This document shows, in pieces, positions 725-7,556 of a DNA stretch of 10,323 nt (positions are counted from its first letter, which is position 1; every line of letters starts with the position of its first letter). Source of the DNA: a virus. The stretch is from the UHGV virus genome UHGV-1723398. One strand, 5' to 3'. Below the pieces are notes generated by a model. The model saw nothing but the letters and a program-made list of their open reading frames with translations. It did no database searches and was not told the origin of the DNA. Both the position numbers and the translations under genes were made by a program.

Positions 725-732
725 CCATTCCA

Positions 733-754
733 AAGCCCATCTACGGGTGGGCTT
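733..754 (+). other. GC-rich hairpin 8 nt downstream of the rha stop codon (possible weak terminator or mRNA 3' stabiliser)
   Basis: Perfect 7-bp inverted repeat AAGCCCA (733-739) / TGGGCTT (748-754) with 8-nt loop; no U-tract follows (GATAATG), so not a canonical intrinsic terminator. Confidence 0.3.
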
Positions 755-1029
755 GATAATGAAACCGTGATTTACATCCCCACAATCCGGGTATGTAAAA
801 GATAGTTCAGGCGAGAACAGATTTAACTAAGTCTGTGCACCACCAGTTGCGGCAGTACCACGAAACAACCCAAGCCAGTAAGTGGGGAAATAACACTGGC
901 AGCCACTGAAAGATGAACCTCCAGCCTTAAGGCAAAAAAGATTCTTTGTGGTGGCGGACTGATGGAAAGACATCGGTTATTGCAGAGACCATTCAATGAG
1001 TGGTCTCGACAATGGCTTATACCCTACAC

Positions 1030-1055
1030 GGGATAACTTAACTGATATCCCTTTT
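1030..1055 (+). other. Short hairpin followed by TTTT just upstream of the 80-aa ORF (weak terminator-like or regulatory structure)
   Basis: GGGATA (1030-1035) / TATCCC (1046-1051) perfect 6-bp inverted repeat, 10-nt loop, then TTTT (1052-1055). The stem is short and AT-containing, so stability is doubtful. Confidence 0.25.
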
Positions 1056-1076
1056 AACGGATAAACGGAGCCAACA

Positions 1077-7552: not shown

Positions 7553-7556
7553 TAAC

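Follow-up and report, generated by a model that had tools for sequence, protein, structure and literature searches.

The DNA considered here, 10,323 nucleotides (nt) of the virus genome UHGV-1723398 and hereafter the window, comes from the late region of a P22-like (Lederbergvirus) prophage of Escherichia coli. Within it a gap at 725-1076 separates rha (170-724) from ORF80 (1077-1319; DUF2560), beyond which lie an open reading frame (ORF) of 23 amino acids (aa) and the genes for the small terminase, the large terminase and the portal. This gap is a mosaic of conserved non-coding modules and no mere spacer. It probably represents a non-coding module that is conserved and transcribed within the lambdoid late operon, and its core would be a late-transcript RNA and a relative of Proteo-phage-1, the Rfam family RF03044. 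The gap is a real and non-trivial feature with a function that is a candidate only, now directly testable in model phages.

The genes of the window are otherwise densely packed, as a sequence-only reading of this DNA had described and as is confirmed here, and the gap is truly exceptional because the sole other long intergenic stretch (7553-7754) contains a 61-aa ORF. The same reading had found no ORF of at least 60 aa on either strand of 725-1076, and this stands: the longest are of 57 aa (TTG start) and 48 aa (ATG start), both on the - strand, and stop codons break all six frames across the gap.

How widely is the gap shared? In megablast and blastn searches it is matched in 201-206 phage records at no less than 80% identity, nearly all of them reaching at least 90%. 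The matches include HK620, Sf6, IME10, P22, phage L and CUS-3, as well as the cos siphoviruses HK97, HK022 and mEp235, Stx-type phages and one Klebsiella phage. Among 5426 complete E. coli genomes, 2557 contain portions of the gap, and the chromosome of E. coli PEC408 has a stretch that is 100% identical to all of it. Similarity begins at the stop codon of the upstream gene, which is rha in the window, hkbL in HK620, gene 65 in Sf6 and a hypothetical gene in HK97. In every case the block has the lysis region on one side and the packaging genes on the other, also in a Sepvirinae phage and in an O157 prophage with a lambda-type terminase, and the packaging genes 3' of it are of the P22, HK97, Sepvirinae or lambda type.

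Nucleotide conservation and a mosaic junction had been posed as alternatives for this gap, and alignment with related phages finds both. The module map, obtained by BLAST of the gap against 126 fetched loci, has recurrent breakpoints at 725, 767/774, 832-852, 974-979, 997/998, 1028/1035 and 1063/1065, which delimit the following pieces.

726-774, + strand: module A, conserved and non-coding, which directly follows the upstream gene's stop codon (BLAST map, annotated regions)
775-840, no strand: module B, often missing as a 57-nt indel
775-831, no strand: the variable 57-nt stretch in module B, missing from many relatives (breakpoints 774/832 and 767/850)
850-974/978, + strand: module C, the conserved structured RNA (Proteo-phage-1-like core plus 3' domain)
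985-1028: hairpin H5 and the block that follows it (BLAST map)

The gap itself is a conserved module, and the suggestion that it is the scar of an exchange finds no support.

The core RNA and its relatives

The core, at 850-978 on the + strand, occurs in 165 phage records (all but one at 90% identity or above) and in 1120 of the 5426 complete E. coli genomes, for which the RefSeq rows listed show no annotated feature over it. Its structural elements are these.

869-886, + strand: P2 hairpin, in which CCC (869-871) and GGG (884-886) close the 12-nt loop AAGCCAGUAAGU
874-900, + strand: loop-tail pseudoknot of GCCAGU (874-879) with ACUGGC (895-900)
902-955, + strand: P3 domain, with GCCACU/GGUGGC, AAAGA/UCUUU and an apical GCC/GGC, a thermodynamic prediction only
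957-978, + strand: P4, CUGAUG-GAAAGA-CAUCGG, preceded by GGCGGAC and followed by UUAUU

RNA folding of the whole gap, a check that the sequence-only reading had proposed, gives z-scores of -4.97 (+ strand) and -2.93 (- strand), which is beyond chance; for three sub-segments the scores are -4.6, -3.0 and -4.0 (+ strand) and -1.4, -2.5 and -2.7 (- strand). On the - strand, the G.U pairs of P3, P4 and H5 would read as C.A mismatches. The stems are almost invariant in the 108 unique enteric sequences, and seven of the nine common polymorphisms in 862-978 fall at unpaired positions, the remaining two being one mismatch in the pseudoknot (A.C) and one in P4 (A.A). A predicted closing helix of 852-856 with 979-983 was dropped, as it is not kept in relatives with insertions at 974. 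A readthrough or frameshift pseudoknot was also considered, the pseudoknot starting 4-20 nt past a stop codon in several members, and was rejected because the frame through the loop is unconserved (by inspection L128 and L162 are alike and L167 is different). There is, in addition, a 9-nt resemblance at 848-856 to what we take to be the reverse complement of a type I-F CRISPR repeat, on which nothing here relies.

Proteo-phage-1 (RF03044) is an orphan candidate small RNA (sRNA) of Proteobacteria and their phages (Weinberg et al. 2017, PMC5737381). Rfam gives no hit at the gathering threshold, which for this family is 42 bits, and a permissive Rfam scan of 600-1200 gives a single match, RF03044 at 841-904 with 17.4 bits and E = 1.5. 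What is such a score worth? By itself it would count as noise, but four findings lift it above that: 23 of 25 strongly conserved positions are matched, the two mismatches compensate each other, P2 closes where it should, and verified members are found by pattern scan.

The matched positions comprise the loop AAGCCGG..AGUG and the tail AA.AAC.CCGGCAGCC, and the chance expectation of a 23/25 match anywhere in the window is ~1e-6. Relative to the family loop AAGCCGGuuAGUG, the window loop AAGCCAGUAAGU carries one substitution (G to A), and relative to the family tail AAaAACaCCGGCAGCC, the tail AAUAACACUGGCAGCC at 889-904 carries a single change of C to U. These two positions pair with each other in the 6-base-pair (bp) loop-tail helix, which is GCCGGU/ACCGGC in other members and GCCAGU/ACUGGC here, such that the enteric A877/U897 represents a double compensatory change; the varying pair is G-C in eight sequences, A-U in two and unpaired in one. 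The CCC/GGG stem closes the loop exactly where other members have P2, and among those members the conserved loop is closed by at least seven different stems.

When viral, genome and metagenome collections were scanned for a pattern in which loop and tail are fixed, verified RF03044 members came out: L076 at 79 bits, and L147, L153 and L131 at 42-58 bits. Five of the eight non-enteric perfect-core sequences (L128, L148, L156, L162 and L167) have good P2 stems and fall under the Rfam threshold, which argues that the RF03044 model is narrower than the family. In an alignment of the eight non-enteric sequences with three enteric ones, 95.9% of cells are paired and five of six P2 pairs change on both sides; none of 500 shuffles reaches the observed values, and slid controls are 19-64% paired. 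A covariance model built from the non-enteric members only, as harvested with the fixed loop and tail, finds 864-904 at 32.9 bits (E ~1e-7), the next match in the window scoring 7.9 bits. The setting also agrees with a family of Proteobacteria and their phages, the window being from an E. coli P22-like prophage and the verified members L076 and L130 being Pseudomonas phage or prophage sequences.

The resemblance does not end with the tail. GGCGGAC lies 48 nt past the tail in the window; Pseudomonas chromosomal copies have GGCRGAC and then (CA)GCGUG-GAAAGA-CACGC(ACUG)UUUU, and the Pseudomonas phage contig L076 has GGCGGAC, GAGGG-GAAAGA-CCCUC and a strong terminator. Fourteen fixed nucleotides are thus found around three different stems, and the homologous unit therefore exceeds the 82-nt Rfam model. 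From 19 Pseudomonas chromosomal copies RNAalifold recovers P1 (with covariation) and P4 and does not recover P2; a long-range helix that it also proposed is unsupported. In the corrugata/brassicacearum group of Pseudomonas and in soil metagenomes (L129-L146, L149-L166), the Proteo-phage-1 match is the first 80 nt of a ~190-nt RNA that runs on through a GC-rich domain to a GAAAGA hairpin and U-tract, and that lies outside any prophage, between a metallothionein-like ORF and the gene of a KGG-repeat stress protein.

The enteric element and Proteo-phage-1 share the P2 hairpin with loop AAGCCNGUNAGU(G), the 3' tail AACACNGGCAGCC and loop-tail complementarity, a phage or prophage context, and a position just 3' of an upstream ORF, and with the Pseudomonas members only they also share the downstream GGCRGAC and GAAAGA-loop hairpin. 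The window core differs in having no P1, a P2 of only 3 bp, a loop-tail spacing of 33 nt in place of 40-49 nt, a different and shorter middle 3' domain, and an A-U in place of a G-C loop-tail pair. At P1 the RF03044 pairs are non-canonical or deleted in cmscan, the sequence upstream of 862 is variable in the enteric alignment, and the CCACG, CAGCG and CCGCG haplotypes have no stem in common. Since the tests of score and of P1 fail, the enteric element is best described as a related variant and not as a member of RF03044. A blastn search in distant mode found no phage homolog of the core below 90% identity, and intermediates between the enteric and Pseudomonas forms are for this reason missing.

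Is the core expressed? Small-RNA sequencing of P22-infected Salmonella defined P22G, an abundant 204-nt RNA on the + strand of AF217253 (21873-22076) at 374-488 reads per million (RPM), which is listed as downstream of ORF201 and with no function known (Naaz et al. 2026, PMC13397905). Its last 145 nt (21932-22076) are ~92-97% identical to window 850-992, a segment that spans P2 through P4 and ends in the 5' arm of H5, and the end of P22G lies 16 nt ahead of the orf25 start. The idea that the gap could encode a small RNA is in this way supported, there being a conserved, structured + strand core whose P22 ortholog is seen by RNA sequencing. P22G and the core correspond in sequence, in strand and in place, after rha/ORF201. 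They differ in that P22G as defined adds 59 nt of the 3' end of P22 ORF201, without counterpart in the window, and in that 125 nt (modules A and B) lie between rha and the RNA in the window, whereas in P22 the RNA adjoins the stop codon. The P22 paper gives P22G no structure-family assignment (PMC13397905). Because a promoter-like site is absent upstream in both P22 and the window, P22G is most simply a stable piece of the late transcript. A search of the literature on Proteo-phage-1, on lambdoid sRNAs at this junction and on the exact sequences found only the 2026 P22 paper; the BTP1 transcriptome paper describes nine non-coding RNAs in a text without positions.

Insertion slots and punctuation hairpins

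Around the core the gap holds further hairpins and two recurrent insertion slots, as follows.

733-754, + strand: H1, a 9-bp hairpin with a UACG loop, then GAUAAUG (folding); it ends the rha cassette and is a paralog of type II H5
771-799, + strand: hairpin UUUACAU..AUGUAAA with an inner CCC/GGG (folding), earlier taken for a promoter pair
817-836, + strand: 8-bp hairpin ACAGAUUU/AAGUCUGU in variable module B (folding)
974-998, no strand: slot 1, empty in the window (breakpoints 974/976/979 on the left, 997/998 on the right)
985-1007, + strand: H5, a 10-bp hairpin GAGACCAUUC/GAGUGGUCUC of which there are two allelic types
1014-1043, + strand: mini-ORF of nine codons, MAYTLHGIT-stop, starting at the conserved GAYAAUGG
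1028-1063, no strand: slot 2, with the - strand pid moron in P22 and BTP1 and only a 34-nt H6 block in the window
1030-1055, + strand: H6, 6-bp GGGAUA/UAUCCC plus UUUU, weak and terminator-like

That moron exchange has shaped this site is supported by the 126 loci, in which both slots recur inside the gap, one of them being the published P22 pid site. The pid moron of P22 and BTP1 occupies the rha/orf25 to orf80 region (Cenens et al. 2013, PMC3573128; Wolput et al. 2022, PMC8835761), the same intergenic region as the gap. It codes for a protein on the - strand and has a promoter and a terminator of its own, whereas the window is without pid, its gap carries no gene and both slots are empty. 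In P22 the 1028/1063 slot holds ~630 bp with the oppositely oriented pid, the Rho-independent terminator of which was found on the - strand; promoter and terminator scans of the gap and its P22 ortholog returned nothing else of relevance. In phage L, 1028 is joined straight to 1063, so that H6 is lacking. In slot 1 the relatives carry, on the + strand, Sf6 gene 66, a Gp49-family gene, a DUF551 gene or a 130-nt cassette with a gene for a 23-aa peptide, and phage Huey has a gene there annotated as anti-CRISPR (Acr).

H1, which had been seen as a perfect 7-bp hairpin, is real and stronger than claimed, with 9 bp (AAGCCCAUC/GGUGGGCUU), one G.U pair and a UACG loop. Also confirmed is the 1030-1051 hairpin with UUUU at 1052-1055, while three more hairpins, at 817-836, 957-978 and 985-1007, had escaped the earlier reading. 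The H5 of the window is of type I, GAGACCAUUC-AAU-GAGUGGUCUC-GACAAUGG, while each slot-1 cassette closes with a type II unit, AUUACAAAAGCCAUUC-CCUACA-GAGUGGCUUUGAUAAUGG. The two types differ by three compensatory pair changes, and position 4 of the stem can be A-U, G.U or G-C. H1 with its GAUAAUG aligns at 30 of 39 positions with the type II unit that closes cassettes in Sf6-type phages. Since the G.U pairs exist only on the + strand, these units are sense-strand RNA punctuation and not cruciforms or - strand terminators. The IMG/VR contig L109 has a recombinant H5, whose 5' arm is of type II and whose 3' arm is of type I, so that 7 of 10 bp remain; it is direct evidence that exchange happens within the punctuation hairpin.

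None of these hairpins has the form of a canonical intrinsic terminator. H1 is followed by GAUAAUG and H5 by GACAAUG, H6 has three G-C pairs and UUUU only, and a scan that calls a terminator at 31-51 calls none of the three; H1 is not canonical because it has no U-tract. The GAYAAUG that follows both H1 (733-761) and H5 (985-1016) opens tiny frames, MKP-stop and MAYTLHGIT-stop respectively, and the AUG within the conserved GAYAAUGG is the annotated start of P22 orf25. From sequence, these frames may be gene-start remnants or re-initiation signals, and the 3' arms GAGUGG and GGUGGG could be sequestered Shine-Dalgarno sequences.

The block 998-1065 also travels alone, and in most of the sampled records of E. 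coli genomes, O157 prophages and siphoviruses it is the piece that matches. Such lone copies of the H5 3' arm, GAYAAUGG and H6, as in phage Ayreon (L005) and E. coli O157:H7 (L169), always lie between lysis and terminase genes, and in Ayreon the hairpin of the block is annotated as a terminator. HK97 (L006 1569-1877) retains the RNA, H5, H6 and the first 82 nt of ORF80, after which comes the HNH endonuclease/cos region; the non-coding module is thus kept where the usual downstream gene is lost.

The HK97/HK022 and HK620 genome papers reportedly treat lambdoid morons and boundary sequences, and the Sf6 record carries 'bsq' boundary-sequence annotations. The gap resembles these in its short conserved sequences and terminator-like hairpins at the junctions of differing cassettes in collinear phages. 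It differs from lambdoid morons in that its hairpin-bounded unit holds a structured RNA and no protein gene, and in that the hairpins are without good U-tracts.

Candidate function and competing readings

How might such a module work? P2 would present the invariant loop AAGCCAGUAAGU, six nucleotides of which would pair with the tail ACUGGC to form an H-type pseudoknot, and after this would come a folded 3' domain ending in the GAAAGA-loop hairpin behind GGCGGAC. The core would represent the enterobacterial branch of a wider RNA superfamily, with RF03044 as its narrow centre. The RNA would be without a promoter of its own and would be made within the Q-antiterminated late transcript, from which a discrete, stable fragment may survive by virtue of its compact fold and of the hairpins H1 and H5 that bracket it; P22G would be that fragment in P22. 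The likeliest role of the invariant loop and the linker nucleotides would be contact in trans with a partner, either protein or RNA. We infer both this action in trans and the processing or protection of the fragment from the late transcript; what the data show directly is the conservation, the module map, the strand, the similarity to and covariation with the RNA family, and the expression of the P22 ortholog. H1, H5 and H6 would be + strand RNA punctuation that closes gene cassettes, their common sequences would mark the points at which cassettes are swapped, and the hairpins may stabilise cassette transcripts and supply short homologies for exchange.

With regard to the partner, a GGA-binding protein of the CsrA/RsmA type is a candidate because GGCGGAC and the GGAAAGAC loop are two conserved GGA motifs, and a defence system is another because neighbouring slots carry Acr-annotated and toxin-like genes. 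Bacteria are known to derive sRNAs from 3' untranslated regions (3'UTRs), for instance CpxQ and SroC, and the element resembles these in starting from a few to ~20 nt after the upstream stop codon in nearly all members. It differs in that the enteric copies are without a canonical 3' terminator, and Hfq or ProQ binding, a processing site and a target are not assigned. Going further, a mobile 'RNA moron' in P22, HK97, HK022, HK620, Sf6, BTP1 and about one in five E. coli genomes, as a branch of a trans-acting superfamily, is possible and rather doubtful.

The region as a moron site (pid), the pile-up of RNA reads (P22G) and the motif family in Rfam were all already known. New are the link between these three, the recognition of the enteric element as a divergent variant that lacks P1, is compact and has its P4 end in common with Pseudomonas members, a family broader than its Rfam model, and the modular map with its allelic punctuation hairpins. 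If the enteric element is a relative, the orphan Proteo-phage-1 becomes testable in P22/Salmonella and in HK97 or HK022/E. coli, with P22G as an expressed ortholog already at hand. What the Rfam model covers would then be only a small portion of a broader phage RNA superfamily, and a blank 'non-coding' stretch in the lambdoid annotations examined would be a conserved RNA cassette, located at an exchange hot spot for accessory genes with pid, Gp49-family, DUF551 and anti-CRISPR annotations. There is value for annotation too: 1120 of the 5426 complete E. coli genomes carry the core, and the sampled records leave it unlabelled.

Several points weigh against the reading of the gap as a conserved RNA module. 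All members of the family are orphans as to function and partner. The RF03044 score of 17.4 bits is far under the gathering threshold of 42, and P1 is absent. The covariance-model test is partly circular, the harvesting pattern having fixed the loop and tail, with the P2 stem and the covarying pair left free. Enteric copies are 90-100% identical and so offer almost no covariation, and their high identity could reflect recent horizontal exchange and not selection. There is an A.C mismatch in the pseudoknot of 6 of the 108 unique enteric sequences and an A.A in P4 of six others, cassette insertion at 974 trims P4 to 4 bp, and P3 is an energy prediction. P22G comes from one study, its ends are set by read coverage with the 5' end within ORF201, it is not stated among the RNAs validated by reverse-transcription PCR, and it could be a decay intermediate.

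In an alternative reading the gap is purely a mosaic junction, made of linker or boundary sequences and leftover cassette terminators that are similar through frequent lambdoid exchange; the resemblance of 864-904 to Proteo-phage-1 would then be functionally meaningless and P22G a decay intermediate of late mRNA. Consistent with this, breakpoints recur at fixed points, the L109 recombinant lies inside H5, the block sits exactly between the exchangeable lysis and packaging modules of four virion types, the flanking ORF80 is equally conserved (94-98%), and enteric variation is too small to prove selection on structure. A junction of this kind leaves unexplained the 23/25 match to a non-enteric RNA motif with compensatory changes, the second common block of GGCRGAC and GAAAGA hairpin with its covarying stems, the polymorphisms that avoid predicted stems, and the + strand bias of stability and of G.U pairs. 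We regard it as unlikely in its pure form, and the roles of mosaic junction and RNA are not mutually exclusive.

Less likely again is that the RNA, H5, the mini-ORF 1014-1043 and H6 form a cis-acting leader, similar to an attenuator or riboswitch, that tunes transcription or translation into ORF80 and the terminase genes. In enteric phages, packaging genes do always follow the element on its own strand, and in several non-enteric members (L076 before a holin gene, L156 and the Pseudomonas chromosomes) the core and a terminator are followed by same-strand genes. The 3' arm of H5, GAGUGG, could serve the conserved AUG as a Shine-Dalgarno sequence that is sequestered, and the stop codon of the mini-ORF falls in the H6 loop. 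Comparison of the wider family argues the other way. The element starts 4-20 nt past the upstream stop codon in P22, POCJ13, L128, L162, L167, L076 and the Pseudomonas chromosomes, where it follows the metallothionein-like ORF and ends in a hairpin and U-tract. The downstream genes are unrelated among members, including those for a holin and a KGG stress protein as well as unknown ORFs; in L147 the next gene is convergent, and in L153 the motif comes after the large terminase gene. Given such unrelated contexts, a 3'UTR-type or stand-alone RNA fits better than a dedicated leader. Between the RNA and ORF80, cassettes of 130-800 bp are tolerated, the oppositely oriented pid among them. H6, which phage L lacks entirely, has just four U residues and goes uncalled in the terminator scan, and from lambda biology Q-modified RNA polymerase is known to ignore terminators.

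Two further explanations are very improbable. In the first, an independent small-RNA gene would be driven by the pair TTTACA (771-776) and TGTAAA (794-799), with a transcript of ~780-1055. The positions given for this pair in the sequence-only reading are right, TTTACA has five of the six bases of the -35 consensus and the spacing is 17 nt, but a promoter role is unsupported: the hexamers are reverse complements of each other and form the arms of a single hairpin, and no promoter is called at 771-799, TGTAAA having G2 and A6 in place of the A2 and T6 of a -10 element. The stretch 775-831 is missing from many relatives that retain the RNA, and in P22, where the RNA directly adjoins the rha stop codon, no promoter-like site was found upstream. 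The proposed transcript limits do not fit either, the conserved RNA being at ~850-978 with no promoter-like site before it in the window or P22.

The second, equally improbable, is an overlooked small protein gene (<60 aa) or frameshifted pseudogene: the 57- and 48-aa ORFs of the - strand overlap 823-996, some phage records annotate a 'hypothetical protein' here and P22 orf25 is annotated as starting at the conserved AUG, but the reading is rejected because relatives have 1-2-nt indels inside the - strand ORFs (e.g. P22 GGGGGAAAA versus GGGGAAA) and their common polymorphisms, as we counted from the enteric alignment, split 3:4:3 over codon positions without third-position bias, while the ATG at 973 has no preceding Shine-Dalgarno sequence, the orf25 frame has just nine codons in the window and varies in length between phages, and the rows listed for E. 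coli genomes hold no RefSeq annotation here.

Neighbouring features of the window

ARAGORN found no tRNA or tmRNA genes in the window, and Pfam searches of ten flanking ORFs returned only NUMOD3, GcrA and DUF2560, with no conserved neighbouring protein. The gap ends at the start of ORF80.

1066-1079, + strand: ribosome-binding site GGAG and ATG of ORF80 (DUF2560)

At 31-60 on the + strand, upstream of rha and inside the late operon, there is a canonical intrinsic terminator with a 9-bp stem and a T-run, which suggests that rha is a separately bounded cassette. In the region 7553-7780, 3' of the coat gene, a strong terminator-like hairpin, GGGGCUUACGCCCCUUUU, at ~7557-7578 precedes the 61-aa ORF (7595-7780), which has a ribosome-binding site and overlaps the start of the next gene.

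The 23-aa ORF between ORF80 and the small terminase gene (1322-1393, + strand) encodes MATQGFDNPSKFRDEWDKQAEGK. A close relative, MSAEGFNNPSKFRDEWDSSVKSK, is encoded by the 130-nt cassette in the 974/998 slot (L028, ~1000-1090), and, judged from these sequences, the product may be a conserved, mobile micro-protein.

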